Numbered from the stretch's first letter, positions 627 to 28,900 are shown. The stretch is DNA of 64,000 nt from Tissierella sp. (GCA_012735585.1 JAAYGX010000065.1:68-64067), one strand, 5' to 3'. Notes: generated by a model not told the origin, from the letters alone. A program made the numbers and translations.

Positions 627-638
627 ATAGTGGACACA

Positions 639-670
639 ATGGACAGGGATTCCCTTGTCCATTTTTTTAT
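639..670 (+). terminator. rho-independent terminator
   Basis: ATGGACAGGGA / TCCCTTGTCCAT stem with one bulge, followed by a T-run (ATTTTTTTATTTTTT). Confidence 0.75.
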
Positions 671-877: not shown

Positions 878-935
878 TTGACATTAGTAATAATTGAGTG
901 ATACAATTAGAGTACAACATTGTAGTACAATATTG
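878..935 (+). promoter_or_regulatory. sigma-A-type promoter plus overlapping GntR-type palindromic operator
   Basis: TTGACA (878-883), 18 nt spacer, TACAAT (902-907). Directly downstream are the overlapping palindromes TACAAcaTTGTA (913-924) and TTGTAgTACAA (920-930), which fit the FadR/GntR-type t.GT...AC.a pattern. The site sits upstream of an operon that encodes a GntR regulator. Confidence 0.5.
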
Positions 936-960
936 CGGACGATTTTAGGAGGAATGTAAA

Positions 961-1641
961 ATGACTATAAAAGGGCAAATAGGTTTCAGTGTAAAAGAGG
1001 ATATTTTTCGAACGGATAAAGATATATTGAATAGACTTAAAGATATGGGAACATGTGCAATCAGTGACGCTATGAAGGGTTTTAATACCATGCATCACAG
1101 CATTAAGTCTATAGATGAACAAATAAAATTTGCAGGCAATGCTATTACAGTGAGGATGAGGTCCGCAGATAATTTAATGCTACATAAGGCTATACAGCTA
1201 GCTAAAGAGGGTGACATAATTGTAGTAGACACATATGGCTCCGAGTCAAATTCTATTTTAGGGGAAATGATGACAACTTCTGCTTTAAAAAATGGAGTGG
1301 CTGGAATAGTAATCGATGGTGGTATAAGGGATATATTAGAATTGAAAAAAATGAAAGCGCCTATATTTGCCACTTGTATAACTCCTGCTGTAGCAGACAG
1401 ACATGGACCTGGTGAAATTAATTTTCCAGTATCATGTGGGGGAGTCGCAGTTAACCCTGGAGATGTTATAGTAGGGGATGCTAACGGTGTTGTAGTAATA
1501 AATAGAGAAATTGTAGAAGAAGTAATGGAATTAGCAGAAGAAAAAATTGAACAAGATAATAAATGGTTTGAAGAAATTTGTAAGGGAAGAATTATTAGGG
1601 AAGATGTAGATGAGGATTTAAGAAGGAGCGGAATTGTTTAA
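961..1641 (+). CDS. RraA-family protein, long form, resembling class II HMG/CHA aldolase / oxaloacetate decarboxylase
   Basis: 226 aa with RraA-fold signature stretches (GDIIVVD..., SILGEMMTTSALKNGVAGIVIDGGIRD). The length matches the aldolase-type members rather than the ~160 aa RraA proteins. RBS AGGAGG upstream. Confidence 0.8.
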   Translation: MTIKGQIGFSVKEDIFRTDKDILNRLKDMGTCAISDAMKGFNTMHHSIKSIDEQIKFAGNAITVRMRSADNLMLHKAIQLAKEGDIIVVDTYGSESNSILGEMMTTSALKNGVAGIVIDGGIRDILELKKMKAPIFATCITPAVADRHGPGEINFPVSCGGVAVNPGDVIVGDANGVVVINREIVEEVMELAEEKIEQDNKWFEEICKGRIIREDVDEDLRRSGIV

Positions 1642-1647
1642 ATAGGA

Positions 1648-2337
1648 TTGGTAGACGAAATATTAAATATAGATTTATTGAAAGGAAGATCAATATTGGA
1701 TTCCCCAGTAGAAAAGGTGTATAAAACCATAAGGTATAGAATATTAAACCAAGAATATGCTCCATCTCAAGCTCTTGTAGAATCAGCATTAGCTAAGGAG
1801 TTTGGAGTTGGTAGAAATACTATTAGGAGGGCCTTAATGCAACTAGTCAATGAAAAGCTAGTTGAACTAGAGGTAAACAAAAGTGCTGTAGTAAAATTTC
1901 TAACAAAAGAAGAAGCTTTAGACTTATTGGAAATAAGAGAGAGATTAGAAGGGCTTATAACTTATAGCACTGCTAAGGTTATAAAAAAAGATGATGTAGA
2001 TAGGATTAGATCTATTCTTAAGGATATGGAAGGACTATTGGCTGAAGGAAATCTACTGGAATACTCGGTAAAGAACGATATTATCCATGATATTATCGAT
2101 GACATATGCCCTAATAGGGAGGCTATCGAATTAATAGAGTCAATCCGATTACAATTAAGAAGCTTTAATAAAAGGACTATATTGATTCCTGGTAGAGCTG
2201 AAGAATCATATAAAGAACATATCGAGTTATTAGAAGCATTGGAATCTAATGATGCGGAAAGAAGTGAAATTATAATGCGTAAACATATGGCTAGTGTTAG
2301 GAATACTTTAATAAAAAATTATGATATGTTATTTTAA
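1648..2337 (+). CDS. GntR-family transcriptional regulator (FadR/FCD-type C-terminal domain)
   Basis: N-terminal winged-HTH region (LVESALAKEFGVGRNTIRRALMQLVNEKLV) and a helical C-terminal domain. TTG start 7 nt after the previous stop. Confidence 0.85.
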   Translation: MVDEILNIDLLKGRSILDSPVEKVYKTIRYRILNQEYAPSQALVESALAKEFGVGRNTIRRALMQLVNEKLVELEVNKSAVVKFLTKEEALDLLEIRERLEGLITYSTAKVIKKDDVDRIRSILKDMEGLLAEGNLLEYSVKNDIIHDIIDDICPNREAIELIESIRLQLRSFNKRTILIPGRAEESYKEHIELLEALESNDAERSEIIMRKHMASVRNTLIKNYDMLF

Positions 2338-2356
2338 ATTATAAGGAGGAAATATA

Positions 2357-3754
2357 ATGACTGGTATTAAGATTACAGAAACCGCTTTTAGAGATGCACA
2401 TCAATCTTTGATAGCCACCCGAATGACTACAGCAGATATGCTACCAATTGCAGAAAAGTTGGATAGGGTTGGATTTCATGCTATAGAAGTGTGGGGTGGA
2501 GCTACTTTTGATTCATGTCTTAGGTATTTAAATGAAGATCCATGGGAAAGGCTGAGAAGTCTTAAAAAGGTATTTAAAAATACTAAATTACAGATGCTAT
2601 TAAGAGGTCAGAATCTATTAGGGTATAAGCACTATCCTGATGATGTAGTAGAGGAATTTGTGAAGAAATCAATTGAAAATGGTATAGACATTATAAGAAT
2701 TTTTGATGCTTTAAATGATGTTAGAAATATTAAAACTGCGGTACTGGCTACAAAAAAATATGGCGGCCATGCTCAGGGTGCTTTGTCATATACTACAAGC
2801 CCTGTTCATAATACTGGATACTATGTAAATGTAGCTATTGAGATGCAAGATATGGGTGTTGATTCTATCTGTATTAAAGATATGTCTGGAATACTACTAC
2901 CATATGTAGCGGAAGAATTAGTCAGGGAGTTAAAGAAGGTCATCACTGTACCTATAGAAGTTCACTCACACTTTACAAGTGGTGTAGCAAATCAAACCTA
3001 TATGAAAGCTATTGAAGCTGGTGCTGACATTATAGATACTGCAATATCGCCTTTAGGTAATGGTACATCTCAACCTGCAACAGAGCCTATGATCGCTTCT
3101 TTACAAGGTTCTCCTTATTATCCAGATTTAGATATGGATTTGTTATTAGAGATATCCGATTATTTTAAAGGAATAAAAGAAAAATATATAAAAGATGGAT
3201 TATTGAATTCAAAGGTATTGGATGTAGATGTAAATACCTTAGTCTACCAAGTACCAGGTGGAATGTTATCAAATCTTGTATCCCAATTAAAGAGCCAGAA
3301 TGCTGAAGATAAATATGAAGAGGTTTTAAATGAAGTTCCTAAGGTTAGAAAGGATCTAGGATATCCTCCTTTAGTCACTCCTTTAAGTCAGATGGTAGGT
3401 ACTCAAGCAGTATTTAATGTAATATTAGGTGAAAGATACAAAATGATACCTAAGGAAATTAAAGATTATGTTAAAGGTTTATATGGTAAGCCTGCAGTGC
3501 CAATATCAGATGAAATCAAAAAAATCATAATTGGTGAAGAGGAAGTATTTACAGGTAGACCGGCAGATTTATTAGAACCACAATTAGATATTTATAGAAA
3601 TGAAATCAAAGAGTTCATGGAGCAAGAGGAAGATATATTGAGTTATGGATTGTTCCCGCAGATTGCATTGGGATTCTTCAAACAAAGACAAGCATCCAAA
3701 TATAAAATAGATAGTGAATTATTGGATGAAGAAAACAAGGTATATCCTGTATAG
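2357..3754 (+). CDS. oxaloacetate decarboxylase alpha / transcarboxylase 5S-type carboxyltransferase, lacking a biotinyl domain
   Basis: The N-terminus ITETAFRDAHQSLIATRMTTADMLPIAEKLDRVGFHAIEVWGGATFDSCLRYLNEDPWERLR is collinear with OadA/PycB. The protein stops at 465 aa after the LFPQIALGFF region, with no Ala/Pro linker and no EAMKM biotin motif. Confidence 0.9.
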   Translation: MTGIKITETAFRDAHQSLIATRMTTADMLPIAEKLDRVGFHAIEVWGGATFDSCLRYLNEDPWERLRSLKKVFKNTKLQMLLRGQNLLGYKHYPDDVVEEFVKKSIENGIDIIRIFDALNDVRNIKTAVLATKKYGGHAQGALSYTTSPVHNTGYYVNVAIEMQDMGVDSICIKDMSGILLPYVAEELVRELKKVITVPIEVHSHFTSGVANQTYMKAIEAGADIIDTAISPLGNGTSQPATEPMIASLQGSPYYPDLDMDLLLEISDYFKGIKEKYIKDGLLNSKVLDVDVNTLVYQVPGGMLSNLVSQLKSQNAEDKYEEVLNEVPKVRKDLGYPPLVTPLSQMVGTQAVFNVILGERYKMIPKEIKDYVKGLYGKPAVPISDEIKKIIIGEEEVFTGRPADLLEPQLDIYRNEIKEFMEQEEDILSYGLFPQIALGFFKQRQASKYKIDSELLDEENKVYPV

Positions 3755-3760
3755 AAATAT

Positions 3761-3806
3761 AAAAAGACCCACTCTTTTTCCTAAAAGAAAGAGAGTGGGT
3801 TAATTT
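3761..3806. terminator. bidirectional terminator between convergent genes
   Basis: ACCCACTCT (3767-3775) pairs with AGAGTGGGT (3792-3800). The hairpin is flanked by an A-run on one side and T-rich sequence on the other. Confidence 0.7.
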
Positions 3807-4842
3807 ATTCTATTTCTCTTACATCTACTTTAAAACTTGTACCGTTAATTTTTAAATCTAGGTTTCTTATATAATTAAAATCAAATCTGTTGTTAGCTAT
3901 AAAATCTTTGATTTCATTATATTTATTATTATATTCCCTATAGATTTCATGAGACTCTTCAACTGAGACGGCCTTAAAATCCATTGTGCTTCCAGGTGCC
4001 ATTTGAGCTAATATAGATAAATCAGGGGTAATAACTGTTGCTATTTTAGTATATCCACCTGTTGTCTGCCTATCTGCCATCATTATAATAGGGGAACCAT
4101 GACCAGGTACTTGTACTGAGCCAAATACTATGCCGTCAGATATAATATCAGCGCCGGATTTATGCTCAATTTTTGGACCCTCAAGTCTATAGCCCATTCT
4201 ATCTGCTTCTGATGTAATACTATACTTAGAGCTTAAAAATGTCTCTTTAGCACTTTCGCTGAAGTACTCATCCTGTGGTCCCATTATCACTCTGATTGAG
4301 TGATGTGAGTTATAGTCTGGGATTAAACTTTTAGGAAGATAACTTCCAGTATAGTCAAGGGATTTGTTTCCAAGAGTTATTTCATCTCCAGAATTGAGCT
4401 TTCTTCCTTCATATCCCCCCAAAACTCCTCGAATAAAAGTGGATTTACTATTCATTATTTCAGGGACGTCAAGTCCCCTACTAAATGCGATATACCCTCT
4501 AATACCAGTTTGCACCCGAGAAAAACTTAGTTTATCTCCTTTATGAACATATATACTTGTCCACATAGGAATAGGTTGTTCATTTATTTTGGGACCCATA
4601 TTAGCTCCTGTTATACTAATAATATCATCACAATTAAATATAACCTCAGGTCCTAATAATGTGGTTTCCAAAACTGCTTCATTCTCGTCATTGCCTACTA
4701 GTAAATTGGCAACTGTAGTGGAAAATAGGTCCATTGCTCCAGCAACGGACATTCCAAATCTTTGGTATCCCCATCTACCTTTATCCTGAATGGTGGTGAG
4801 TAGCCCTGGATTTTTAATATTAATTGTTGCCATGACTTTCAC
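3805..4842 (-). CDS. pxpC: 5-oxoprolinase subunit C (allophanate hydrolase subunit 2 / KipA family)
   Basis: 345 aa with family-typical N-terminus (PGLLTTIQDKGRWGYQRFGMSVAGAMD). Overlaps the upstream pxpB by 23 nt. Confidence 0.9.
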   Translation of the reverse strand: MKVMATINIKNPGLLTTIQDKGRWGYQRFGMSVAGAMDLFSTTVANLLVGNDENEAVLETTLLGPEVIFNCDDIISITGANMGPKINEQPIPMWTSIYVHKGDKLSFSRVQTGIRGYIAFSRGLDVPEIMNSKSTFIRGVLGGYEGRKLNSGDEITLGNKSLDYTGSYLPKSLIPDYNSHHSIRVIMGPQDEYFSESAKETFLSSKYSITSEADRMGYRLEGPKIEHKSGADIISDGIVFGSVQVPGHGSPIIMMADRQTTGGYTKIATVITPDLSILAQMAPGSTMDFKAVSVEESHEIYREYNNKYNEIKDFIANNRFDFNYIRNLDLKINGTSFKVDVREIE

Positions 4843-5566
4843 CTTCCTCTACAATATTTACCTTATATTGATCTTTATTGATTAGATCTAATATCCTTAA
4901 ATATTCTTTTTCATCAACAGGGATAAATCTTATGTAATCCCCAGCGTTTAATAGTACAGGTGGATCTGACAAGGGGTCGTATAGTTTCGCAGGTGTACGT
5001 CCAATTAATTGCCATCCTCCTGGGCTATCAATAGGGTAAATTCCAGTTTGTTTACCTGCTATACCTGTAGAGCCAGCAGGTATCTTTGTCCTAGGGACTT
5101 GAAGCCTTGGAGTCTCAATCTTTTCGCTCATACCACCAAGATATCCAAATCCAGGAGTAAACCCTAGCATGTATAGTAGGTAGTCAGTAGAACTGTGTAT
5201 CTTAATGACTTCATCTATAGTTAGATTATTATGTTTGGCGACAAACTCTATATCAGGGCCATATTCTCCCCCGTAAACAGTAGGCAATTCTACAATTCTT
5301 GTTTTACTACTATTTGCCTTACCTAAATCTTTTTCGATTTTCTTTAGGCTGCTTACAAGAGTACTATATCCAATTACTAAAGGTTCATAGATAATAAGTA
5401 TGGATCTATAGGTTGGGATAATCTCGCTAATACCTACAATTTTTAATTTATCAAGAGATTTTACCATATTGCTAATTTTAGCATTAATTTCAGGTTTAAT
5501 ACTGTTTCCAAATTCCATAACTAGGGATTTATCGCCAGCAGGAATAAATTTTGTCTCATTATACAT
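4820..5566 (-). CDS. pxpB: 5-oxoprolinase subunit B (allophanate hydrolase subunit 1 / KipI family)
   Basis: 248 aa with KipI-type sequence (GDKSLVMEFGN..., IPAGSTGIAGKQTGIYP). Lies in an operon with pxpA and pxpC. Confidence 0.9.
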   Translation of the reverse strand: MYNETKFIPAGDKSLVMEFGNSIKPEINAKISNMVKSLDKLKIVGISEIIPTYRSILIIYEPLVIGYSTLVSSLKKIEKDLGKANSSKTRIVELPTVYGGEYGPDIEFVAKHNNLTIDEVIKIHSSTDYLLYMLGFTPGFGYLGGMSEKIETPRLQVPRTKIPAGSTGIAGKQTGIYPIDSPGGWQLIGRTPAKLYDPLSDPPVLLNAGDYIRFIPVDEKEYLRILDLINKDQYKVNIVEEGESHGNN

Positions 5567-5592
5567 GTTTTCACCAACTTTATTTTTCTTGT

Positions 5593-6786
5593 TTAGAATA
5601 GAGCTTTAAGTCCGGATAAAGATCTAATTCCAAGGAAAAGTGTAACAAATACAACTATAATACCAAGTATCAATAACCATGTAGGGTGTTCGTAATCCCC
5701 GATTATGTTTTTGTTTCTAGCTGCTAGCAGCATGGTTCCAAGGGTAATTGGTAATATAAGCCCATTTAAAGATCCAGCAACTACAAGCAAGGTAACAGGT
5801 TGTCCAATGGTAATAAACATAAGTGCTGAAACAGCAATAAAACCCATAATCCATTTATTTTCATGCTTATTAACAACTTCAGCCAATGTAGTTAAAAATG
5901 AAACTGAAGTATAAGCTGCACCAACAATAGAAGAAAGTGCTGCTGCCCAGATAACTGCACCAAAGAACTTATATCCGATATTTCCTGCTGCAAGTTTAAA
6001 AGCAGAAGCAGGAGGATTGGCAGGGTCAAGTACCATACCTTTAGATACTACACCTAGGACTGCTAAGAATAGCAAAACTCTCATAATACTTGCAACACCC
6101 ATTCCCATGAGAGCGGACTGTTTAATTTGACCTAGATTATCTTCGCCAGATATACCAGCATCTAAAAGCCTATGACCACCTGAAAAGGTTATATATCCAC
6201 CAACTGTACCACCAACTAAAGTAATAATCGCCAAGAAAGGTATTTGCTCTGGGATAAATGTTCTATGAATAGCTTCTCCTACAGGAGGTGCTGTTGATAT
6301 TGCAACATAGCCAACCATAAGAATCATAGCTGCACCTAATATTTTAGTTAAAGTATCCATAGCTTTACCAGCTTCTTTAGAGATGAATATACCAATAGCT
6401 AATATAGCGGAAATAGCGGCTCCGATTTTCAAGTCAAGACCAAACATTACATTAAGGCCTAAAGCTGCGCCCCCAACATTACCAATATTAAAAGCTAGTC
6501 CACCTAAGGCAACTAAAGCAGCAACAAAATACCCTAAACCGGGCAATACTTTATTTGCTACATCCTGTCCTCTCATTCCTGAAACACCGATAATGCTCCA
6601 AACATTAAGTTGCGCAACTATTGATATAATTACTGATACTAGAATAACGAATCCAAAGGTTGCCCCTAAATCAGCAGTAAAAGTAGCTGTTTGGGTCAGA
6701 AACCCGGGACCAATAGCAGAGGTAGCCATCAAAAATGCTGCTCCTAATAATACGGATAAATTATTATTTTTAGTTTTATTAGCCAA
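5593..6786 (-). CDS. Nramp-family membrane transporter (YcsG-like)
   Basis: 397 aa polytopic membrane protein with an Nramp-like N-terminus (AFLMATSAIGPGFLTQTA). It occupies the same position as ycsG in the Bacillus ycsF-ycsG-kipI-kipA cluster. Confidence 0.8.
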   Translation of the reverse strand: MANKTKNNNLSVLLGAAFLMATSAIGPGFLTQTATFTADLGATFGFVILVSVIISIVAQLNVWSIIGVSGMRGQDVANKVLPGLGYFVAALVALGGLAFNIGNVGGAALGLNVMFGLDLKIGAAISAILAIGIFISKEAGKAMDTLTKILGAAMILMVGYVAISTAPPVGEAIHRTFIPEQIPFLAIITLVGGTVGGYITFSGGHRLLDAGISGEDNLGQIKQSALMGMGVASIMRVLLFLAVLGVVSKGMVLDPANPPASAFKLAAGNIGYKFFGAVIWAAALSSIVGAAYTSVSFLTTLAEVVNKHENKWIMGFIAVSALMFITIGQPVTLLVVAGSLNGLILPITLGTMLLAARNKNIIGDYEHPTWLLILGIIVVFVTLFLGIRSLSGLKALF

Positions 6787-6800
6787 ATTTTATATCCTCC

Positions 6801-7580
6801 TTAAATAAATTCGTTTAAATTTTTAATTTCTACACCTTCAGCAATTAAGCTTTCCCTAATAAATTTTACAAAGTTTACTGCCTCAGGATTATCCCCATGG
6901 ACACATATGGAATCGGCGATGATATCGATTTCCTGACCATTAATTGCAGTTACTTTACCTTCTAATACCATCTTTTTAATTCTTCTAATGGCTTCTTCTT
7001 GGTCATGAATAACAGCTCCAGGTAGCCTTCTGTTAACTAGAGTTCCATCTGTATTATATGCTCTATCTGCAAAAACCTCTTGTGCAACCCTTAGGCCTTT
7101 TTCCTGTGCTCGTTTTGCAATATAGGTACCACTTAAAGCTAAAAGAATAATATCTTTATCAACATCTAGAATCCCATTTATTACTGCTTCTGCTAATTCA
7201 GGATTTACTGAAGCAGTATTATAAAAGGCGCCATGGAGTTTCATATGTTGGATTTTTACATTATGTGCTGCGGCAAAAGCATTTAAGGCCCCTAGTTGAT
7301 AAATCATATATGCTCGAGCCTCTTTTGGGGTAATATCTAAATTCCTTCTGCCAAATCCCATTAAATCAGGATAACCTGGGTGGGCTCCTATAGCGACACC
7401 ATTACTTACAGCCTGTTTTACTGTTTCATCCATTATCAGAGGATCACCAGCATGCCAACCACAGGCAATATTAACACTACTTACATGTTTAATTACTTCT
7501 TTGTCTAAACCTAAGACATAAGTACCAAAACTTTCGCCAAGATCTGAATTTAAATCAACAATACCTTTCATAAAATCCAC
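6801..7580 (-). CDS. pxpA: 5-oxoprolinase subunit A (LamB/YcsF family)
   Basis: 259 aa with the LamB/YcsF N-terminal motif DLNSDLGESFG. Confidence 0.9.
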   Translation of the reverse strand: MDFMKGIVDLNSDLGESFGTYVLGLDKEVIKHVSSVNIACGWHAGDPLIMDETVKQAVSNGVAIGAHPGYPDLMGFGRRNLDITPKEARAYMIYQLGALNAFAAAHNVKIQHMKLHGAFYNTASVNPELAEAVINGILDVDKDIILLALSGTYIAKRAQEKGLRVAQEVFADRAYNTDGTLVNRRLPGAVIHDQEEAIRRIKKMVLEGKVTAINGQEIDIIADSICVHGDNPEAVNFVKFIRESLIAEGVEIKNLNEFI

Positions 7581-7725
7581 CTCCTAAAATTTGTAAAAGA
7601 CTATATATATTTATAATACTATACAAATGTACGAAGTCCTTGTTTTTTAAAAAAACAATTTGAATGTTTTTCCAATTATTACCCTAATTATGTCCAGTAG
7701 CAAATGTAGAAAGTAGTTTTCTCAT

Positions 7726-7842
7726 TGTCATCCTAAAAGAAGGATCGGATTATATATTTCAATATATTCAAGATCCTTTGCTAACCTTAATGTAAGACTT
7801 AGGAAATACTTTTGGAGTGTAAGGGTAAATCTCGGGATGACA
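7726..7842. repeat. nested-palindrome intergenic repeat, copy 1 (degenerate, carries an internal insertion)
   Basis: Tips are TGTCATCC (7726-) and GGGATGACA (-7842). Inner arms are GAAGGATC and GATCCTTTGC. About 49 nt of extra sequence lies between the inner and outer right arms. Same family as the elements at 36319, 44393 and 60484. Confidence 0.75.
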
Positions 7843-7861
7843 AGTTGGACTTTCACTGGCC

Positions 7862-9070
7862 TTAAAGAAGAATAGACTGTAAGTTTTCAGCGATAGAGTC
7901 AATCATCTTTTGGCTATTCACCCATTTTTTATTCTCCACGGAAGACATTTTTATTAAATCTTTGGTCATAATGCCTTTATTTACTATGTTAATAGTTGCT
8001 TCTTCTAGTTTATTTGAGAAGTTTACTAAATCCTCATTGGCATCTAGTTCTCCCCTTTTTCTAAGAGCTCCAGTCCAAGCAAAGATAATAGCAATAGGAT
8101 TAGTTGAGGTTTTCTCTCCGCTTAAATGTCGATAATAATGGCTTTTTACTGTTCCGTGGGCTGCTTCATATTCATAATTTCCATCTGATGATACTAATAC
8201 TGATGTCATAAGTGCAAGACTTCCAAATCCTGTGGCTACCATATCGCTCATCAGATCTCCTTCGTAGTTTTTGCATGCCCAGATTACTCCTCCATTTGAT
8301 TTGATTGCCCTGGAAATAGCATCATCTATAAGTGTATAAGTATAGCTAATACCTTCTTCTTCGAAGGATGCTTTGTATTGATTGTTATATAAGTTTTGGA
8401 AGATATCTTTAAATTTATAATCATATGTTTTAGTTACTGTGTCTTTTGTTCCAAAGATTAAATCGGTTTTACTATTTAGAGCATATTTAAAACAAGTGTG
8501 AGCAAAGTCCTTAATAGAGGAATCCAAATTGATATGGCCCATTAAAATGCCTTCTTCATTAAAATCAAAGACTGGATATTTAGTTTCATAGCCATTTTTA
8601 TCTGTTAGAACAAAATCTACTTTCGTATCTTTACCAATTTCAAGACTTGTAGATATATAGATATCCCCATAGGAATGTCTTGCAATAGTAATTGGCTTCG
8701 TCCATGTTGGGATAATAGGTGTTAGTGTGTCTAAGATAATAGGAGTTCTAAAAACTGTACCATTCAATATCTTCCTAATAGTACCATTTGGGCTTTTCCA
8801 CATTTCTTTCAAATCATATTCATCCTGCCTATCCTTATTGGCGGTAATAGTAGCACATTTTACTCCTACACCATATTTTTTTATGGCATTTGCGGCATCT
8901 ATTGTTACTATATCATTGGTATTATCCCTGTTTTTAATATGCAAATCGTAGTATTCAACTTTTAAATCTACAAAGGGCTCTATTAAACTTTCTTTAACCC
9001 AGCTCCACAGCACTCTGGCCATTTCATCTCCATCTAGCTCAACTATTGGTACAGTCATTTTGATTTTCAT
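7862..9070 (-). CDS. icd: NADP-dependent isocitrate dehydrogenase (eukaryote-like ~400 aa subfamily)
   Basis: Collinear with IDH1-type enzymes: ELDGDEMARVLW, NRDNTNDIVT, GVKCATIT, MWKSPNGTIRKILNGTVFR. Confidence 0.93.
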   Translation of the reverse strand: MKIKMTVPIVELDGDEMARVLWSWVKESLIEPFVDLKVEYYDLHIKNRDNTNDIVTIDAANAIKKYGVGVKCATITANKDRQDEYDLKEMWKSPNGTIRKILNGTVFRTPIILDTLTPIIPTWTKPITIARHSYGDIYISTSLEIGKDTKVDFVLTDKNGYETKYPVFDFNEEGILMGHINLDSSIKDFAHTCFKYALNSKTDLIFGTKDTVTKTYDYKFKDIFQNLYNNQYKASFEEEGISYTYTLIDDAISRAIKSNGGVIWACKNYEGDLMSDMVATGFGSLALMTSVLVSSDGNYEYEAAHGTVKSHYYRHLSGEKTSTNPIAIIFAWTGALRKRGELDANEDLVNFSNKLEEATINIVNKGIMTKDLIKMSSVENKKWVNSQKMIDSIAENLQSILL

Positions 9071-9083
9071 AATTTTTAACCTC

Positions 9084-11006: not shown

Positions 11007-11070
11007 ATATCCGTCCTCCTATTAAATTATTAAAAAAAGGGGGAAGAAACCTCCCCTGAAATTAATTTCT

Positions 11071-13350: not shown

Positions 13351-13453
13351 TAATAGCCTCCTCGATTTCTAAATATTTAGTATTGTTCGTATCCTGACTT
13401 TAGTGTATAATTAAATCGATATATAGTCTAATATTCTTTTTATTATAGAACCT

Positions 13454-13468
13454 ATAGGTAATGCCTAT
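13454..13468. promoter_or_regulatory. LysR-type (T-N11-A) box ATAGGTAATGCCTAT
   Basis: Perfect ATAGG-N5-CCTAT dyad 19 nt upstream of the lysR ATG. It is centred about 64 nt upstream of the TSS predicted from a candidate minus-strand promoter (TTAGAC-16-TATACA, plus-strand coordinates 13404-13431) that would drive the aconitase operon. Confidence 0.5.
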
Positions 13469-13486
13469 ATTAAGGAGAGATTTAGG

Positions 13487-20725: not shown

Positions 20726-21769
20726 ATGTATATGTATAAAAGAGATATTAATATAAGAACTATTAACTTAGGGCGTAATTCTGAAAAGCAGAAAATAATA
20801 ATGTTTTTAAAGGACCATGACCTTTTATTCGAAGAAGATATCGACTATACAATTGGTGTATATCAGGAGGACTCACTTATTGGGACAGGTTCATTATCGG
20901 GAAATGTACTAAAATGTATAGCTGTTAATGGAGAATTTCAAGGAGAAGGCATCTTTAATAAGATAATTTCACAATTGATAAATACCCAGTACCAAAGAGG
21001 CAATATGCATTTATTTGTCTTTACTGGGCCAGAAAATAAAAAATTCTTCGAAGATACAGGATTTAGAGAAATATCATCAGTAGATGACAAAGTATCCCTT
21101 TTGGAAAATGATCCAAAGGGAATAGAAAAGTACGTAGAAAATCTTAAGCGTAGTAAGAAGGAAGGGGCTATTATATCTAGTATAGTTATGAACTGTAACC
21201 CCTTTACCTTAGGACATCAATATTTAATTGAAAAAGCTGCAAAAAGTAGTGATATAGTGCATATCTTTCTTGTATGGGAAGATCGTTCTTTATTTCCTAA
21301 TGATATTAGGTTAAAACTTTTGAGAGAAGGAACTAGCCATTTAGATAATGTAATAATCCATAAAGGAGAGAATTATATTATATCTAATTCAACTTTTCCC
21401 TCTTATTTTCTAAAGGAAGAAAATACGGTAGTTAAAACCCACGCTACTTTGGATATAAAATTATTTGTAGAGTATATTTGTCCAGTACTTGGTATTAACA
21501 AAAGGTTTGTGGGTAGAGAGCCTAATGATCCAGTTACAAATGAATACAACAAGGCAATTATGAAACTGCTTCCGATATATAATATTCAAGTAGAAGAGAT
21601 CCCGAGACTTACGGTAGGTGAAGGGGTTATTAGTGCCACGAAGGTTAGAAAATCAATTAAAGAAGGCAATATGGAGTCATTGAAACAGTTAGTTCCAATG
21701 ACAACTTATAAATATATAGTATCAGATGATGCAAAACCAGTTATTGATAAAATTAGAAAAGATATGTAA
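20726..21769 (+). CDS. citC: [citrate (pro-3S)-lyase] ligase
   Basis: 347 aa with an N-terminal acetyltransferase-like domain and a cytidylyltransferase-like core (NCNPFTLGHQYLIEKAA). Immediately upstream of citDEF. Confidence 0.9.
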   Translation: MYMYKRDINIRTINLGRNSEKQKIIMFLKDHDLLFEEDIDYTIGVYQEDSLIGTGSLSGNVLKCIAVNGEFQGEGIFNKIISQLINTQYQRGNMHLFVFTGPENKKFFEDTGFREISSVDDKVSLLENDPKGIEKYVENLKRSKKEGAIISSIVMNCNPFTLGHQYLIEKAAKSSDIVHIFLVWEDRSLFPNDIRLKLLREGTSHLDNVIIHKGENYIISNSTFPSYFLKEENTVVKTHATLDIKLFVEYICPVLGINKRFVGREPNDPVTNEYNKAIMKLLPIYNIQVEEIPRLTVGEGVISATKVRKSIKEGNMESLKQLVPMTTYKYIVSDDAKPVIDKIRKDM

Positions 21770-21790
21770 AAATGTCAAGGAGGTAATCAA

Positions 21791-22081
21791 ATGGAGCTGA
21801 AGAAAATAGGAATAGCTGGAACTGTAGAATCCAGTGATATAAGTATAATAATTGAGCCTACAGACAAGGGCGGAATTGAGATTAGTTTGCAAAGCGCAGT
21901 AATGAAGCAATTTGGCAGACAAATTAAAGAAGTAATAGAAGAGACAATGAAGAGTAAAGGTGTAAAAAATGCTACTGTTAGGGCTGTAGATAAAGGAGCA
22001 GTGGACTTTGTAATAAAGTCAAGAACTCTTACGGCGCTTTATAGGTCCGCAGATATAGATGAATACAAATGGGGAGAGTGA
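21791..22081 (+). CDS. citD: citrate lyase acyl carrier protein (gamma subunit)
   Basis: 96 aa with the prosthetic-group serine motif AGTVESSD near the N-terminus. Confidence 0.9.
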   Translation: MELKKIGIAGTVESSDISIIIEPTDKGGIEISLQSAVMKQFGRQIKEVIEETMKSKGVKNATVRAVDKGAVDFVIKSRTLTALYRSADIDEYKWGE

Positions 22082-22086
22082 TATAA

Positions 22087-22983
22087 ATGGTGAAATTACG
22101 AAGGACTATGATGTATGTAACTGGAAATAATCCAGCAAATATAATGGATGCACATTTATATGGTTCGGATTCCATTATGTTTGACTTAGAAGATTCCGTA
22201 TCAATAAAAGAAAAGGATGCTGCTAGATTTTTAGTATATAATGCTTTAACGACTATGGATTACGGTGATACTGAGACAGTTGTTAGAATTAATGGTTTAG
22301 ATACGCCATTTGGTAGGGACGATTTGGAAGCTATGGTAAGAGCACAACCAAATGTTATAAGATTACCTAAAACAGAAACCCCGGAGGATGTTTTAGAGGT
22401 GGAACGAATTATCCAAGAGATAGAAGAGAAGGTGGGTATAGAGGTAGGTACTACTAAGATGATGGCTGCCATAGAAGGGCCTCTTGGTGCTATGAACGCA
22501 TATGAGATAGCAAAATCAAGTAAAAGATTAATAGGAATTGCAATTGGTGCTGAGGATTTTGTAACTAGTATAAAGACTACAAGATCTAGTGAAGGAATAG
22601 AGATATTGGCAGCTAGAAGTCAAATTGTATTAGCGGCTAGGGCAGCAGGGATATATGCTTTGGATACAGTATTTTCCGACATAAATGATGATGAAGGATT
22701 TATTAACGAGACTAAGTTAATAAAACAATTAGGTTTTGATGGTAAGTCGGTTATCCATCCTAGACAAGTAAGTTTAGCCCATGAAGTATATACTCCTACT
22801 GATAAAGAGATAAAAAATGCTTTAAGGGTATTAGATGCTATAGAGGAAGCGGAAAGAAGTGGCTCAGGGGTTATAGCTTTAGATGGAAAGATGATAGATG
22901 GGCCAATTGTTGATAGGGCATATAGAGTATTAGAATTAGCTAAGGCAACTGGAGTATATAGAGAGGAGGATCAAAATGAATAA
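22087..22983 (+). CDS. citE: citrate lyase beta subunit (citryl-CoA lyase)
   Basis: 298 aa HpcH/CitE-family sequence (MFDLEDSV, AAIEGPLG, GAEDF). Confidence 0.9.
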   Translation: MVKLRRTMMYVTGNNPANIMDAHLYGSDSIMFDLEDSVSIKEKDAARFLVYNALTTMDYGDTETVVRINGLDTPFGRDDLEAMVRAQPNVIRLPKTETPEDVLEVERIIQEIEEKVGIEVGTTKMMAAIEGPLGAMNAYEIAKSSKRLIGIAIGAEDFVTSIKTTRSSEGIEILAARSQIVLAARAAGIYALDTVFSDINDDEGFINETKLIKQLGFDGKSVIHPRQVSLAHEVYTPTDKEIKNALRVLDAIEEAERSGSGVIALDGKMIDGPIVDRAYRVLELAKATGVYREEDQNE

Positions 22984-24517
22984 AAATGGAGTAGGTAGGG
23001 AAATACCGGCATATATAGAAGGTGTAGGAGAGCTTAAGGCTTATGAAAGTCCTTTTAGTATAATTCCAGAGGGAAATAAAGTAGGTCCAAAGCTAAAAAG
23101 ACCATTACCACATAAAAATAAATTAGTAGATTCTTTAGAAGAAGCTGTGAAAGCAGTAGGGTTAAAAGATGGGATGACCATATCCTTTCACCACCATTTT
23201 AGAAGTGGTGATTATATTGTAAATATGGTGTTGGATGTTATAGCACACCTAGGAATCAAGAATATTAAAGTTGCAGCAAGTTCTTTATCCACATGTCATG
23301 GACCATTGATTGAACATATTAAAAATGGTGTAATAACTGGAATTGAAACCAGTGGATTAAGAGATCCTCTAGGCACTGCTATTTCAGAAGGAATCTTAAA
23401 AAAACCTGTTATTATAAGATCCCATGGTGGAAGGGCAAGAGCTGTTGAGTCAGGAGAGTTAAAAATTGATGTTGCGTTTTTAGGAGCTCCAGCTAGTGAT
23501 GAATATGGGAATGCAAATGGGTTTTCAGGACCTTCAGCTTGTGGTTCATTAGGATATGCACTTGTTGATGCCAATTATGCTGATCATGTAGTATTAATCA
23601 CTGATAATCTAGTGGAATATCCTTGTTTACCGGCAAGTATTAATCAGACTCAAGTGGATTATATAGTTGAAGTGGAATCTATTGGAGATCCAAAAGGCAT
23701 AGTATCAGGTGCTATTAGAAGTACTACAAATCCAAAGGATCTATTAATAGCGGAAAATGCGTTGAAGGTGATTATGGCATCAGGATATTTTAAAAATGGA
23801 TTTTCATATCAAACAGGTGCAGCGGGAGCTTCACTAGCAGTAACTTCCCTTATGAAAGAAAAGATGATTGAGCAAAACATAAAAGGTAGTTTTGGACTTG
23901 GAGGAATCACTGCTCAGTTAGTAGACCTTCTAGAAGAAGGATTGATGGAAGGATTATTTGATACTCAATGTTTTGATTTAGTAGCAGCAGAATCCTTAGG
24001 AAAAAACCCTAAACATTTTGAAGTAGACGCAGGATTTTATGCCAATCCACACAATGCAGGTTGTGCAGTAAATAAATTGGATATTGTCCTTCTAGGAGCT
24101 TTAGAAATAGATACAGATTTCAATGTAAATGTTATATCTGGTTCAGATGGAGTTATAAGTCAGGCTTCAGGTGGACATTCTGATACGGCAGCCGGTGCAA
24201 ATATTTCTATCATATTAGCCCCACTAATTAGAGGTAGAATTCCAATTGTGGTGGATAAGGTGACCACTGTTGTAACACCAGGAGAAACAATAGATGTGGT
24301 TGTAACGGATTATGGTATAGCTGTAAATCCACTTAGGAAAGATTTAATTGAAAGATTCAAAAAAGAAAATTTAAAGATATATACCATAGAGGAATTACAA
24401 AAAATAGCGGAAAATATAACGGGAAAACCAGATACTATTGAATTTGGTGATAGGATTGTAGGTGTGGTTCAATATAGAGATGGTTCGGTTATAGACGTAA
24501 TCAGACAGGTAAAATAA
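22976..24517 (+). CDS. citF: citrate lyase alpha subunit (citrate CoA-transferase)
   Basis: 513 aa CitF-type sequence (ISFHHHFRSGD...). Overlaps citE by 8 nt. Confidence 0.9.
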   Translation: MNKNGVGREIPAYIEGVGELKAYESPFSIIPEGNKVGPKLKRPLPHKNKLVDSLEEAVKAVGLKDGMTISFHHHFRSGDYIVNMVLDVIAHLGIKNIKVAASSLSTCHGPLIEHIKNGVITGIETSGLRDPLGTAISEGILKKPVIIRSHGGRARAVESGELKIDVAFLGAPASDEYGNANGFSGPSACGSLGYALVDANYADHVVLITDNLVEYPCLPASINQTQVDYIVEVESIGDPKGIVSGAIRSTTNPKDLLIAENALKVIMASGYFKNGFSYQTGAAGASLAVTSLMKEKMIEQNIKGSFGLGGITAQLVDLLEEGLMEGLFDTQCFDLVAAESLGKNPKHFEVDAGFYANPHNAGCAVNKLDIVLLGALEIDTDFNVNVISGSDGVISQASGGHSDTAAGANISIILAPLIRGRIPIVVDKVTTVVTPGETIDVVVTDYGIAVNPLRKDLIERFKKENLKIYTIEELQKIAENITGKPDTIEFGDRIVGVVQYRDGSVIDVIRQVK

Positions 24518-24533
24518 GAAAGATAACACCATA

Positions 24534-25229
24534 GTGAGCAATATTACAGTAAAGGAAAGGGATAAGATGAGCGAGTTAAGAATTGGGATGCCTATAAGCC
24601 AAGAAGTATATCAAAAAATAAAATATGATATTCTGGAGAATAATTTAAAACCGGGAGAAAAATTAATAGAAGAGAATATTGCTACTGAATTAAATGTAAG
24701 TAGGACCCCAGTTAGAGAAGCATTAAAGCAATTGGATCAGGATGGTTTAGTGACTTATTATCCAAGAAGGGGATCTGTAGTAAGTGAGATATCCTTAGAG
24801 GATGCAAAGGAGCTTTATGAAGTCAGAGAGGTTCTAGAAGGATTAGCAATCAAACATATATGTATGAATATCAATCGAAAGGATCTAAAAAAACTTGGAG
24901 ATATCGTATCTAATATGGAAAAGGCAATGGCCAAAGATGATCATGAATATATGACAGAACTCCACAAGGTATGGAGTGAAACCACCTTCATGTTAATTCA
25001 AAATGAATTATTAAAAAGCTACTTAACATCTATAATGGATAATCTAGGTAGACTTAGGAAGATTTCACTATATAATCCTGTCCATAACTATGATGCTTTT
25101 AAAGAAACTAAGGATATATATAATGCTATAGTAGAGAATCAACCAGGGGAATGTGAAATTTTAGCCAGATTGCATGTGAGGAATGCAAGGAAAAGGTTTG
25201 AAGGAAATATAGGCCATATAGGAGAGTAA
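24534..25229 (+). CDS. GntR-family transcriptional regulator (FCD type)
   Basis: wHTH region (IEENIATELNVSRTPVREALKQLDQDGLV) plus an FCD-like C-terminal domain. An alternative start ATG at 24567 is preceded by AAGGAAAGGG. Confidence 0.85.
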   Translation: MSNITVKERDKMSELRIGMPISQEVYQKIKYDILENNLKPGEKLIEENIATELNVSRTPVREALKQLDQDGLVTYYPRRGSVVSEISLEDAKELYEVREVLEGLAIKHICMNINRKDLKKLGDIVSNMEKAMAKDDHEYMTELHKVWSETTFMLIQNELLKSYLTSIMDNLGRLRKISLYNPVHNYDAFKETKDIYNAIVENQPGECEILARLHVRNARKRFEGNIGHIGE

Positions 25230-25290
25230 TAGTGCTTAAATATAAATTATGAAAGATTTTATCAAGCTATAAATCAAAATGAGGAGGCCA

Positions 25291-26835
25291 ATGATGAAGA
25301 ATAATATAACAAAACTTCTCAATCAAAACAGTAAAGTACAACAAGGGGATAAAGAGAAGATTGAAAAACAACATGCATCTGGTAAGTTATCTGCAAGAGA
25401 GAGAATAGATCTTTTACTAGATGATGATAGCTTCATAGAAGTGGACAAGTTCTCTGGAAATGGTGGTATGGAAGAGAAGCTAGGATCAGATGAAGTATCA
25501 GCAGATAGCATAGTTGGTGGATACGGGACCGTAGATGGTAGGCTAGTATTTGTCTATGCACAAGACTTTACTGTAGCCGGAGGTTCAGTAGGGGAAAAAC
25601 ATGCTGAAAAGATTGTAAATATTCAAAAGATGGCATTGAAAATGGGTGCACCTATAATTAGTCTTATGGATTCAAAAGGTGGGAAAGTTGAAGAAGGTAT
25701 AGATACCATATCTGGATATGGAAAGATTTTACACCAGAATACAATTTCTTCAGGGGTTATTCCACAGATATCAATTGTTGTAGGACCATGTGCCGGAGGA
25801 ATTTCCTTCTCAACAGCCTTGTCGGACTTTACATTTATGGTAGATAAGACTAGTTCTATGTTTATAAATGGACCACAAGTAATAAAATCACAAACTAATG
25901 AGGACATAAGTCAAGAAGAATTAGGTGGGGCTATGGTTAATAATAGTGTCAGTGGTGTAGCTCATTTTCTAGATTATTCTGAAGAAGAGTGTATTAATAG
26001 GATAAGGGAATTATTATCATTTTTACCTTCGAATAACTTAGAAAATGCACCATCTTATGATTCTGTAGATAACATAAATAGGGTAGAAGATTTTTTAAAT
26101 CAGGTTCTTCCTGAAAACATATACGGTCCTTATGATATGAAAGAGATTGTAAAACTTATTGCAGATGAAGGATATTTCTTTGAGATTCAGCCTTATTATG
26201 CGGAAAATATTATAACTGGATATATAAGATTAAATGGTAGAACCATAGGTGTAGTAGCTAATCAACCAAGTATAGAAGAAGGGCTTCTAAGTATAAATGC
26301 AGTTAATAAGGCAGCAAGGTTTATTAGAAACTGTGATGCCTTTAATATCCCATTACTTAACTTAGTAGATGTGGCAGGTTTTGTACCTACTAAATCAGAG
26401 GAACATGGTGGAATTATTAGGCATGGAGCTAAGATGATTTATGGATATAGTGAAGCAACAGTTCCAAAGATTACTTTAGTAATTAGAAAGGCTTATGGTA
26501 GCGCTTACTTATCTATGTGTAGTAAAGAGTTAGGTGCGGACCAAGTATTTGCATGGCCAGGATCTGAAATTTCTGTTTTAGATCCAGAGGCTGCAGCAAA
26601 TATTATTTTCAAAGATGAGATAGCTAACTCAGCAGACCCTATATTGACTAGGAAAGAGAAGATTGAGGAATACAAAGCTTTAGAAGCCAATCCTTATAAT
26701 GCAGCTAAAAAAGGATATATAGACGATATAATACTTCCAAGTATTACAAGACCAAGACTGATATCTGCTTTTGATATGCTAGAAACTAAGAGAGAGACTA
26801 GACCGGGGAAAAAACATGGTAATTTACCAGTATAA
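25291..26835 (+). CDS. acyl-CoA carboxyltransferase, alpha subunit of a Na+-translocating decarboxylase (MmdA / transcarboxylase 12S-like)
   Basis: About 514 aa carboxyl-transferase fold (GKLSARERIDLLLD, VYAQDFTVAGGSVG, GIIRHGAKM). The true start is probably ATG 25291 or 25294, downstream of AGGAGG (25282-25287), not the tracked 25279. Confidence 0.88.
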   Translation: MMKNNITKLLNQNSKVQQGDKEKIEKQHASGKLSARERIDLLLDDDSFIEVDKFSGNGGMEEKLGSDEVSADSIVGGYGTVDGRLVFVYAQDFTVAGGSVGEKHAEKIVNIQKMALKMGAPIISLMDSKGGKVEEGIDTISGYGKILHQNTISSGVIPQISIVVGPCAGGISFSTALSDFTFMVDKTSSMFINGPQVIKSQTNEDISQEELGGAMVNNSVSGVAHFLDYSEEECINRIRELLSFLPSNNLENAPSYDSVDNINRVEDFLNQVLPENIYGPYDMKEIVKLIADEGYFFEIQPYYAENIITGYIRLNGRTIGVVANQPSIEEGLLSINAVNKAARFIRNCDAFNIPLLNLVDVAGFVPTKSEEHGGIIRHGAKMIYGYSEATVPKITLVIRKAYGSAYLSMCSKELGADQVFAWPGSEISVLDPEAAANIIFKDEIANSADPILTRKEKIEEYKALEANPYNAAKKGYIDDIILPSITRPRLISAFDMLETKRETRPGKKHGNLPV

Positions 26836-26850
26836 ATGAGGTGAATGTAA

Positions 26851-27222
26851 ATGGGTGAACAAATTTCATTATTAGATGCCTTGCTAGTTACACTAGTTAG
26901 TATGGTGGCAGTATTTGTAATATTAATACTAATATCATCATTAATTAATGGATTGAGGATGATTAGTGGAGATAAAAAGAAAACAGAAGAGGCCGTGGCA
27001 GAAGTAAAACCAGCCAAAAATACAGTAGAGATAGTGCCAGTGCCAGAAGTTGTCAAAGAGGATAATGAGGAATTAGTTGCAGTAATTGCATCGGTGGTCG
27101 CTATGCACTTAGGGCTAAATATTCCAGATATTAATATAAAAAGCATCAAAAGGGTTCAACAAAATAGTAATCCTTGGTCATCAACATCAAAAGCAGAACA
27201 ATTAAGGGGAAGACTTTACTAA
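26851..27222 (+). CDS. OadG/MmdD-family small membrane subunit of the Na+-translocating decarboxylase
   Basis: 123 aa with a single N-terminal TM helix (LVTLVSMVAVFVILILISSLI) and a C-terminal LVAVIASVVAMHLG segment typical of OadG-like proteins. Confidence 0.8.
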   Translation: MGEQISLLDALLVTLVSMVAVFVILILISSLINGLRMISGDKKKTEEAVAEVKPAKNTVEIVPVPEVVKEDNEELVAVIASVVAMHLGLNIPDINIKSIKRVQQNSNPWSSTSKAEQLRGRLY

Positions 27223-27245: not shown

Positions 27246-27674
27246 ATGAGGAAATTTTTAATAAATGTATATGGTAATTCTTATGAAGTAGAAGTAGAAG
27301 AAATAAACGCTGAAGGAACAAGTCCTAGACCAGTAACTACTTCAACTCTAGCACCTAGGCCAACGCCAACTGTACAAGCTCCAGTAGTTCAGCCTGTTGT
27401 ATCCAAACCCGTTGTTGAAACACCGCAAGCTCAAAAATCCGAAGTGGCTGTCTCGGAGGGGCAGGAGGTAGTAGAGGCTCCAATGCCAGGAAATATATGG
27501 AAAGTACTAGTATCAGAAGGGGATATGGTTAAGTCTGGAGATGTTTTATTAATACTTGAGGCTATGAAAATGGAAAATGAAATATTAGCTCCAAGGGATG
27601 GAAAGGTAGTTAGCGTTACAACATCAGAAGGTTCAAATGTAAATACAGGAGAGAAGTTAGTAGTAATCGAATAA
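27246..27674 (+). CDS. biotin carboxyl carrier subunit of the decarboxylase (MmdC/GcdC / 1.3S-like)
   Basis: 142 aa with a Pro/Ala/Val-rich linker and the biotinylation motif [10 protein letters not shown]. Confidence 0.9.
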
Positions 27675-27700: not shown

Positions 27701-28900
27701 ATGTTTGTAGATATATTATCTGATTTTTGGGCAAGTACTGGATTTGCGATTATGGAGTATGGTCAGCTCATTATGCTTCTTATATCCTTCGGTTTACTAT
27801 ATCTAGCTCTAGCAAAAGGTTTTGAACCTTTATTACTTATCCCTATAGCATTTGGGATGCTTCTGGCTAACTTACCAGGAGCAGACTTAATGAAGGAACC
27901 TATAGTAGAGATTATACAGGATCCAAATACAGGAGAGCTGGTCTCTCAAACTAAGGAAGTTGGGGGTTTACTATATTATCTATATCAGGGAGTAAAATTA
28001 GGTATATACCCTCCGCTTATTTTCTTAGGTGTAGGAGCAATGACGGATTTTGGACCATTAATTGCCAATCCAAAGAGTATATTATTAGGAGCAGCTGCTC
28101 AATTTGGAATTTTTGCAACCTTTATTGGAGCAATTTTGCTTAATTCATCAGGATTAGTAGCATTTACTGCAAAAGAAGCGGCATCAATAGCAATAATAGG
28201 TGGAGCAGATGGACCAACGGCATTATACCTTACTTCAAAATTAGCACCTCAGTTATTAGGACCAATAGCCGTGGCAGCCTACTCTTATATGGCACTAGTC
28301 CCTATTATACAGCCACCAATAATGAAGGCTCTAACCACTAAGGAAGAAAGAGAAATTGTAATGAATCAATTGAGAGTTGTTTCAAAGAAAGAAAAGGTTA
28401 TATTTCCTATTATGGTTACAGTAGTAGTCTCATTATTACTACCATCAGCGGCATCATTAGTAGGTATGTTGATGCTAGGAAACCTATTTAAAGAATCACT
28501 ACTTGCTGATCGATTATCTGAAACAGCACAAAATGAACTTATGAATATAGTAACAATATTCCTTGGAATAACTGTAGGAGCTACTGCAAATGCACAAACT
28601 TTCTTATCCACAAAAACTTTGAGTATAATTGCACTTGGACTAGTAGCATTCTCTATAGGAACTGCATCTGGAGTAATATTTGGTAAGATTATGTGTAAAC
28701 TATCAGGTGGAAAGATAAATCCACTAATAGGTTCAGCTGGTGTATCAGCAGTGCCGATGGCAGCAAGGGTTTCACAAAAAGTTGGACAAGAAGCAAATCC
28801 AAGAAATTTTTTACTTATGCATGCTATGGGACCAAATGTAGCAGGAGTTATAGGTTCTGCAATAGCCGCAGGAATGTTGCTTAATTTCTTTGGTGGTTAA
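27701..28900 (+). CDS. Na+-translocating decarboxylase beta subunit (OadB/MmdB/GcdB family)
   Basis: 399 aa polytopic protein with family-typical segments ([24 protein letters not shown]). Confidence 0.92.

Follow-up and report, generated by a model that had tools for sequence, protein, structure and literature searches.

An operon of three genes at positions 961-3754 of a 64,000-nucleotide stretch of DNA from Tissierella sp. (GCA_012735585.1, JAAYGX010000065.1:68-64067; the whole stretch is referred to as the window) was analyzed computationally. It encodes an RraA-like protein, a GntR-type regulator (GntR1) and OadA, a biotin-less carboxyltransferase. The genes observed here, with their domain architecture and synteny, the presence of a single set of partners in the genome and the patterns of selection suggested that OadA belongs to a split, four-part Na+-translocating oxaloacetate decarboxylase (OAD) for citrate (tricarboxylate) fermentation, of the Enterococcus faecalis type, a reading to which a probability of about 0.6 was assigned. 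Biotin-dependent Na+ pumps are a main way for fermenting anaerobes to conserve decarboxylation energy, and the system is most likely a variant of a known split pump of this kind and not a new enzyme system, its more interesting aspects being the RraA-fold partner and the proposed re-tooling of a methylmalonyl-CoA decarboxylase module.

The three genes lie on the same strand, tightly packed, with intergenic gaps of 6 nt and 19 nt, and were recovered as open reading frames (ORFs) at the positions given in a preliminary description of this DNA:

961..1641, plus strand: RraA-fold long-form protein, 226 aa (PF03737, E 8e-50)
1648..2337, plus strand: GntR/FCD transcription regulator GntR1, 229 aa (PF00392 and PF07729, GntR helix-turn-helix and FCD domains)
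2357..3754, plus strand: OadA, biotin-less 5S-like oxaloacetate/pyruvate carboxyltransferase, 465 aa (HMGL-like and PYC_OADA domains; NF008985)

OadA and its predicted pump partners

OadA matched the biotin-less model NF008985 ("oxaloacetate decarboxylase subunit alpha") from end to end (positions 1-463/465, 822.5 bits against a cut-off of 718). By contrast, it covered merely positions 1-442/582 and 2-450/591 of the full-length models for biotin-bearing OadA/PycB (the latter PRK09282). Since these models were covered to about position 450 only, the linker, the biotinyl domain and most of the association segment are truly absent from the protein, which corrects the initial view that it was collinear with OadA up to the end of the association region. 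The metal-site motifs (RD13, K174DM and H203xH205) are intact. The PDB matches were 5KS8_C, 2NX9 and 1RQB, the best of them being 5KS8_C, the beta subunit of a two-subunit pyruvate carboxylase (521 bits).

The candidate partners of OadA are encoded further downstream in the window, in the following cluster:

20726..24517, plus strand: citC-citD-citE-citF, citrate lyase and its ligase (TIGR00124, TIGR01608, TIGR01588 and TIGR01584, all above their cut-offs)
24534..25229, plus strand: GntR2, a second GntR/FCD regulator, in a CitO-like position between citF and the pump genes
25279..26835, plus strand: diverged MmdA/12S-like acyl-CoA carboxyltransferase (TIGR01117, 716.8 bits; best PDB match 1VRG)
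26851..27222, plus strand: OadG/MmdD-type membrane anchor subunit (PF04277, 49.9 bits against a cut-off of 27)
27246..27674, plus strand: free-standing biotin carboxyl carrier protein (BCCP; 1.3S/MmdC/OadD-like), 142 aa, with an AMKM motif and the biotinyl Lys108 (AMK108M)
27701..28900, plus strand: OadB/MmdB, Na+-translocating decarboxylase beta subunit (TIGR01109, 525.5 bits)

The 12S-like gene had previously been placed at 25291; the gene itself was confirmed, but its start lies at 25279. The BCCP encoded at 27246 has a linker rich in Pro, Thr and Val, and accBCDA follows directly downstream of oadB. GntR2 was slightly closer than GntR1 to the regulators found in the cit loci of other Bacillota (28-31% identity).

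The genome-wide searches were carried out on an assembly that is 97.3% complete. Three biotin/lipoyl domains were found in it, namely the 27246 BCCP, AccB and the lipoyl domain of a 2-oxoacid dehydrogenase E2, so that the 27246 BCCP is the only non-AccB BCCP of the genome. OadA, OadB, OadG, the MmdA-like carboxyltransferase and AccC are each present in a single copy genome-wide, and neither a second pump nor a dedicated BCCP elsewhere was found in the assembly-wide search. The preliminary description had listed free-standing BCCPs in the window only at 27246 and in accB and had proposed a check for others across the genome; this check was run, and the statement holds genome-wide. Because the genome holds no other candidate BCCP or pump and the genes are contiguous in the closest relative, the most likely partners of OadA are the 27246 BCCP and the membrane module formed by OadG and OadB.

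In such a system, the likely source of oxaloacetate would be citrate lyase, whose genes immediately precede those of the pump. OadA would move the beta-carboxyl group of oxaloacetate onto the biotin of the 27246 BCCP, and OadB (27701), anchored via OadG (26851), would decarboxylate the carboxybiotin and export Na+. From the genes encoded, we infer that these subunits assemble physically and that the complex pumps Na+.

Synteny, mutase genes and the MmdA-like subunit

Among the relatives with a long contig, the closest is L001/L087 (OadA 85% identical), and the genes RraA-GntR-OadA-MmdA-OadG-BCCP-OadB were found uninterrupted in it. OadG-BCCP-OadB is duplicated on this contig (L087), with 98% nucleotide identity over 2083 nt (5677-7759 and 12286-14368), and the copies flank RraA-GntR-OadA-MmdA, which would reflect a recent duplication event or else an intermediate of recombination. 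The contig is labelled Varibaculum timonense (Actinomycetota), yet its genes are Tissierellaceae-like and AT-rich, and the label is probably wrong. In another relative (L086), the interval between OadA and MmdA is 4 kb long and contains only a pxpC-pxpB-Nramp-pxpA operon, and a relative that is 96-98% identical (L085/G008) carries a long insert between the two genes like that of the window. The GntR1 gene sits between RraA and OadA in all three of these relatives (L085, L086 and L087).

More than 40 of the 80 loci with OadA homologues have BCCP and OadB adjoining OadA, arranged as BCCP-OadB-OadA or OadA-BCCP-OadB; dozens of Bacillota have such clusters. Many of these loci also hold an MmdA-like gene, and several adjoin citDEF. 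In a maximum-likelihood tree, the OadA of the window was placed within a Tissierellaceae/Thermohalobacteraceae clade, whose sister, a larger clade, contains the OadAs from citrate loci of Streptococcus, Trichococcus and Collinsella together with the OadA-BCCP-OadB triads of Clostridium and Tepidibacter.

OadB was present in all eight related genomes with this OadA, and the OadA gene lay away from OadB in five of them, on another contig where this was checked. In the sister genomes, OadG-BCCP-OadB lie elsewhere, inside a mutB-B12 subunit-meaB-epimerase-mmdA-D-C-B operon, and the BCCP was never found without OadB and OadG beside it in this clade. As OadA is not linked to the pump in five sister loci (L002-L006), an oadA located far from the pump is the usual arrangement in this clade. 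The split of 21.5 kb stressed in the preliminary description is therefore real but not unusual for the clade. An experimentally studied precedent is that of Acidaminococcus fermentans, where about 15 kb separate gcdA from gcdDCB, the genes for the delta, gamma (BCCP) and beta subunits, which establishes that a pump of this kind can be served by a carboxyltransferase encoded in trans (PMC3035267). Unlike GcdA, which is of the acyl-CoA type, the OadA of the window belongs to a different carboxyltransferase family with a different substrate.

The RraA-GntR-OadA operon was found in four genomes: that of the window, G001, G007 and G008. Methylmalonyl-CoA mutase was not found in any of these four genomes, and all four contain two citrate lyase loci, one of which precedes the MmdA gene in the window and in G008; in G001 and G007, one was found at a distance of 5-13 kb from the pump. 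In the genome of the window, the second citC-citD-citE-citF set is located on contig C57 (37-51% identical), and citG, which is needed for citrate lyase activation, on contig C140; citG and citX are missing from the window, and this does not imply that they are missing from the genome. No match to PF01642 (methylmalonyl-CoA mutase) was found in the window's genome, and tblastn searches of it with MutB, the B12 subunit and MeaB from a mutase-positive locus (L116) gave no matches. The search for the epimerase returned distant glyoxalase-family matches only, with no close epimerase among them. As for the mutase-positive sisters, no citrate lyase was found in G002-G005, and G006 has both mutase and citrate lyase.

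The MmdA-like protein of the window (25279-26835) was then compared with those of L116-L119, L086 and L087. In the mutase-positive genomes the pairwise identity of MmdA was 71-84%, above that of OadA (66-75%) or OadB (65-79%), whereas in the mutase-less ones it was 59-66%, with 85-89% for OadA and 83-92% for OadB; the protein thus changes much faster in the four mutase-less genomes than in the mutase-positive sisters. Scores on TIGR01117 were 896-957 bits for mutase-positive and 623-717 bits for mutase-less proteins. The sequence motifs were altered in the latter as well: DSGGARIQEG became DSxGG[KR][IV]E[ED]G, PGFLPG was replaced by AGFVPT, PGFLLD or QGFVMD, and YGGAY by YGSAY or YGNGY. The ratio of nonsynonymous to synonymous substitution rates (dN/dS), calculated between the window and G008, was 0.10 for the MmdA-like gene and 0.033 for OadB. 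A decaying relic was ruled out by this ratio and by the full-length ORF present in the four genomes.

The pump module probably originated from a methylmalonyl-CoA decarboxylase operon, captured by citrate catabolism after the mutase pathway had been lost in this lineage, with the acyl-CoA carboxyltransferase of the ancestral operon persisting in a diverged form. A more elaborate version of this history can be offered only tentatively, and it is considerably less probable than not. The module of BCCP, beta and gamma subunits would have been kept after the loss of the mutase, set beside citrate lyase and served in trans by an inducible OadA, and one carrier and pump would be common to two carboxyltransferases. 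As the MmdA-like protein is kept under selection while its active-site motifs diverge, it would have acquired a new substrate or a scaffold role, and the RraA-fold enzyme would be a soluble partner of a new kind, setting the share of oxaloacetate that passes through the pump. If true, one BCCP/beta/gamma module serving two unrelated carboxyltransferases from different operons would show the modularity of such machines, and a pump would have been handed over from the succinate/propionate pathway to the citrate pathway. The large and poorly characterized long-form RraA family would also gain a concrete physiological setting in anaerobes.

The presence of 12S, 5S and 1.3S homologues, adjacent to each other in L001/L087, brings to mind a transcarboxylase, in which OadA, the 12S-like protein and the BCCP would pass CO2 between oxaloacetate and an acyl-CoA (methylmalonyl-CoA:pyruvate or other) with no involvement of the pump. 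The N-terminal motif of the 27246 BCCP is 1.3S-like. MmdA-BCCP-OadA clusters without OadB occur in other Clostridia (L008, L009 and L012), and a similar operon of Geobacter bemidjiensis has been interpreted in this manner (PMC2996986). Nevertheless, with no mutase, MeaB or close epimerase found in the window's genome, and no mutase in G001, G007 and G008, methylmalonyl-CoA would have neither source nor sink; moreover, motifs that are normally conserved have changed in the 12S-like subunit, and OadB and OadG are always retained with the BCCP in the clade. A transcarboxylase was hence judged improbable as a whole: its classical cycle is unlikely, and transfer to another acyl-CoA is possible. Of the modular system proposed earlier, a Na+ pump or a transcarboxylase, the pump partnership gains from the unique partners and the synteny, and the transcarboxylase loses from the missing mutase, MeaB and close epimerase and from the diverged 12S-like subunit.

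The RraA-like protein and the control of its operon

The RraA-like gene is 96% identical to a gene of an uncultured Tissierella metagenome-assembled genome. The closest solved structure for its product was 3NOJ, the Pseudomonas putida HMG/CHA aldolase (HMG, 4-hydroxy-4-methyl-2-oxoglutarate; CHA, 4-carboxy-4-hydroxy-2-oxoadipate; E 4e-30, 27% identity). An AlphaFold (AF2) model of the protein, with a predicted local distance difference test score (pLDDT) of 90.8, was aligned with 3NOJ by Foldseek with template modelling (TM) scores of 0.87/0.84 over 214 columns, whereas short RraA structures covered only about 60% of the model (TM score by query, TMq, 0.6). The similarity in length to class II aldolases had been noted earlier; the protein has the long-form fold, including the terminal extensions. 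Arg123, Asp124 (the metal ligand), Asn71 and His75 are conserved with 3NOJ and invariant across 18 RraA-like homologues, and Arg123 is essential in 3NOJ (PMC5065237). An identity as the RNase E inhibitor RraA is contradicted by the length of 226 aa, compared with about 160 aa for the short form, and by scores below the cut-offs of the corresponding models (102.1 vs 136 on NF006875 and 55 vs 241 on TIGR02998). The protein is predicted to be a divalent-metal class II pyruvate aldolase/oxaloacetate decarboxylase.

The preliminary description had this enzyme generating oxaloacetate locally, that is, acting as an HMG/CHA-type aldolase that splits a tricarboxylic 4-hydroxy-2-oxo acid and feeds the oxaloacetate released to OadA. 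The long-form architecture, the catalytic Arg-Asp pair and the 3NOJ-like fold agree with this proposal, as does the position of the gene in the same operon as OadA. A tricarboxylate island (TctCBA, two aconitase-family proteins and a PrpD-family protein) is encoded between OadA and the pump, and some RraA homologues elsewhere adjoin aconitase-like or CitE-like genes. Yet both equivalog cut-offs for HMG/CHA aldolase (LigK/ProA) were missed (163.2 vs 179 on NF006731 and 139.1 vs 304.5 on TIGR02798), and the residues for phosphate activation in 3NOJ are replaced (Arg40 by Gly, Gly144 by Val and Thr145 by Ala, in an alignment read against PMC5065237). Unlike the P. putida enzyme, this one comes from an anaerobic organism, with no context of aromatic meta-cleavage. 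No source of a substrate of this type was seen in the window, and no gene for ring cleavage or for a CHA-making hydratase among the annotated window genes, LigJ/GalB not having been searched genome-wide, and oxaloacetate would already be supplied by citrate lyase. This role was consequently considered improbable, and the local supply of oxaloacetate by the RraA-like enzyme is not supported by the gene context.

HMG/CHA aldolase also decarboxylates oxaloacetate, via the same pyruvate-enolate intermediate (PMC5065237). Given this activity of HMG/CHA-type enzymes and the analogy with CitM, the most economical proposal for the RraA-like protein is a soluble, non-pumping oxaloacetate decarboxylase that would be co-induced with OadA. 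Cleavage of some 4-hydroxy-2-oxo acid is the less likely alternative.

Purifying selection was observed on every gene of the operon, with dN/dS values of 0.048 for the RraA-like gene and 0.023 for OadA between the window and G008. The following control elements were located around it:

638..663: terminator, after the upstream gene and preceding the operon
878..907, plus strand: strong sigma-70-type promoter TTGACA-18-TACAAT with a TG extension (11 of 12 consensus matches)
911..936, plus strand: probable GntR1 operator of the FadR/GntR type, overlapping dyads with the core ACAAcATTGTagtACAA, at the predicted transcription start
3766..3801, no strand assigned: terminator hairpin with a 15-bp stem, between the convergent OadA and pxpC genes

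The -10 block of the promoter, TGATACAAT, is kept in L086 and L087, and the operator stretch ACAAnATTGTnnnACAA is kept in both relatives with available upstream sequence. Extra copies of the operator core in the window were no more frequent than expected by chance; a genome-wide 11-mer scan was too noisy in this AT-rich genome and was not used. With its candidate site at the predicted transcription start, GntR1 is a probable autoregulator of the RraA-GntR-OadA operon.

Genes of the pxp type adjoin the RraA-GntR-OadA operon in the four genomes (Tissierellaceae) with that operon. A general linkage between RraA and pxp was rejected, pxp genes lying within 1.5 kb in none of 29 further Bacillota RraA loci. 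In three loci from Clostridium/Lachnospiraceae (L097, L098 and L103, about 7900-12600), an RraA-like gene, 35-38% identical, is the first of an operon RraA-pxpB-pxpC-pxpA-glutamate dehydrogenase (GDH), which adjoins genes for a LysR regulator and for an aminotransferase. In L086 (7300-7860, minus strand), the gene of a BioY-like biotin transporter is divergent from the RraA-GntR-OadA operon; a BioY-like gene in L001 (1-246, minus strand) is near that operon and adjoins pxp genes, and the homologue in the genome of the window is on contig C209.

Comparison with known systems and neighboring genes

The membrane OAD of E. faecalis consists of OadA, OadB, OadD (the biotin carrier) and OadH, and its locus also encodes a GntR regulator and the soluble CitM (PMC6193673). 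In this organism, the type II cit cluster is arranged as oadHDB-citCDEFX-oadA-citMG, with the regulator CitO (PMC6193673, PMC3198936). The window shares with it a biotin-less OadA, a biotin carrier that is a protein of its own, a beta subunit for the pump and a fourth, small subunit, as well as cit genes that separate oadA from the other oad genes, a GntR-family regulator and, as a candidate only, a second, soluble oxaloacetate decarboxylase alongside (the RraA-like protein). The cit-locus OadAs of Streptococcus, Trichococcus and Collinsella form a clade next to that of the window. Unlike in E. faecalis, the window has oadA at a distance of 21.5 kb, within a separate operon that contains a regulator gene of its own; an OadG/MmdD-type protein takes the place of OadH as the small subunit; the pump operon also encodes the MmdA-like acyl-CoA carboxyltransferase in its diverged form; the protein proposed as a soluble decarboxylase is of the RraA fold and not of the malic-enzyme family, as CitM is; and citG lies on another contig.

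The gene order alpha, delta (OadG-like), gamma (BCCP) and beta is that of MmdABCD from Veillonella parvula and Propionigenium modestum. In contrast to that pump, no mutase, MeaB or close epimerase was found in the genome of the window, citrate lyase stands upstream in place of the mutase genes, and the alpha subunit, with its altered motifs, reached only 717 bits on TIGR01117, where the orthologues linked to a mutase scored 896-957. As in the methylmalonyl-CoA:pyruvate transcarboxylase of Propionibacterium, 12S, 5S and 1.3S homologues are present; unlike there, membrane beta and gamma subunits are added, no methylmalonyl-CoA pathway was found in the genome and the 5S homologue is encoded outside the operon of the 12S and 1.3S homologues. 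Experiments on other systems provide precedents for a split OadA, for a biotin carrier on a separate protein and for a carboxyltransferase encoded in trans, and current knowledge is not overturned by the present system.

Several observations weigh against the assignment as a split, E. faecalis-type OAD. OadA and the pump genes belong to different operons with different GntR regulators, and no second copy of the GntR1 operator was found near the pump genes in a scan of the window. Most of the association segment, by which proteobacterial enzymes bind the gamma subunit, is missing from OadA, and docking would therefore have to take place through the N-terminus of the BCCP or another surface. The retention of the MmdA-like subunit under purifying selection is left unexplained by a pure oxaloacetate decarboxylase model. 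None of the 29 further Bacillota loci with RraA homologues adjoins OadA or pump genes, so that context leaves the role of the RraA-like protein unconstrained. Finally, OadA stands alone in L002-L006, amid housekeeping and 2-oxoacid:ferredoxin oxidoreductase genes, and such a context would fit an anaplerotic, carboxylating role.

In that role, OadA would carboxylate pyruvate, either with AccC and a BCCP as a multi-subunit pyruvate carboxylase or through reversal of the pump by the Na+ gradient. Besides the non-catabolic setting of the L002-L006 orthologues, this would agree with 5KS8_C being the best solved relative of OadA (521 bits), with no other PYC_OADA protein having been found in the genome, with the pairing of OadA homologues with AccC-like genes in archaea and in L062, and with the position of accBCDA immediately after oadB in the window. 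However, OadA differs from PycB of two-subunit pyruvate carboxylase in not being fused to the BT/association and BCCP domains, by which PycB attaches to PycA. The sole AccC sits inside the acc operon and there is no dedicated PycA, the adjacency to acc is not kept in L001, and in this lineage OadA belongs to an inducible operon and co-occurs with citrate lyase. Pyruvate carboxylation was therefore given a low probability, and the split Na+-translocating OAD was retained as the preferred assignment.

The insert between OadA and MmdA in the window and in L085/G008 contains pxp genes, icd, two aconitase-family genes, lysR, a PrpD-family gene, tctCBA and the cit genes. A further membrane protein precedes citC:

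19659-20702: AbrB-duplication membrane protein (PF05145)

This protein, which may be a carboxylate carrier, accompanies the pump genes both here and in L001 (13140-14189, after oadB), with 67% identity. The minus-strand genes at 3805-13350 encode a YbhJ-like hydratase, aconitase, NADP-dependent isocitrate dehydrogenase (icd), PxpA, an Nramp/YcsG-like protein, PxpB and PxpC, and no terminator was detected between icd and pxpA. GDH is encoded elsewhere in the genome, on contig C229. Speculatively, these genes could combine with those for GDH, citrate lyase, OadA and the pump to form a redox- and CO2-neutral route that would run from 5-oxoproline/glutamate through 2-oxoglutarate, isocitrate and citrate to acetate and oxaloacetate, and from the latter to pyruvate.

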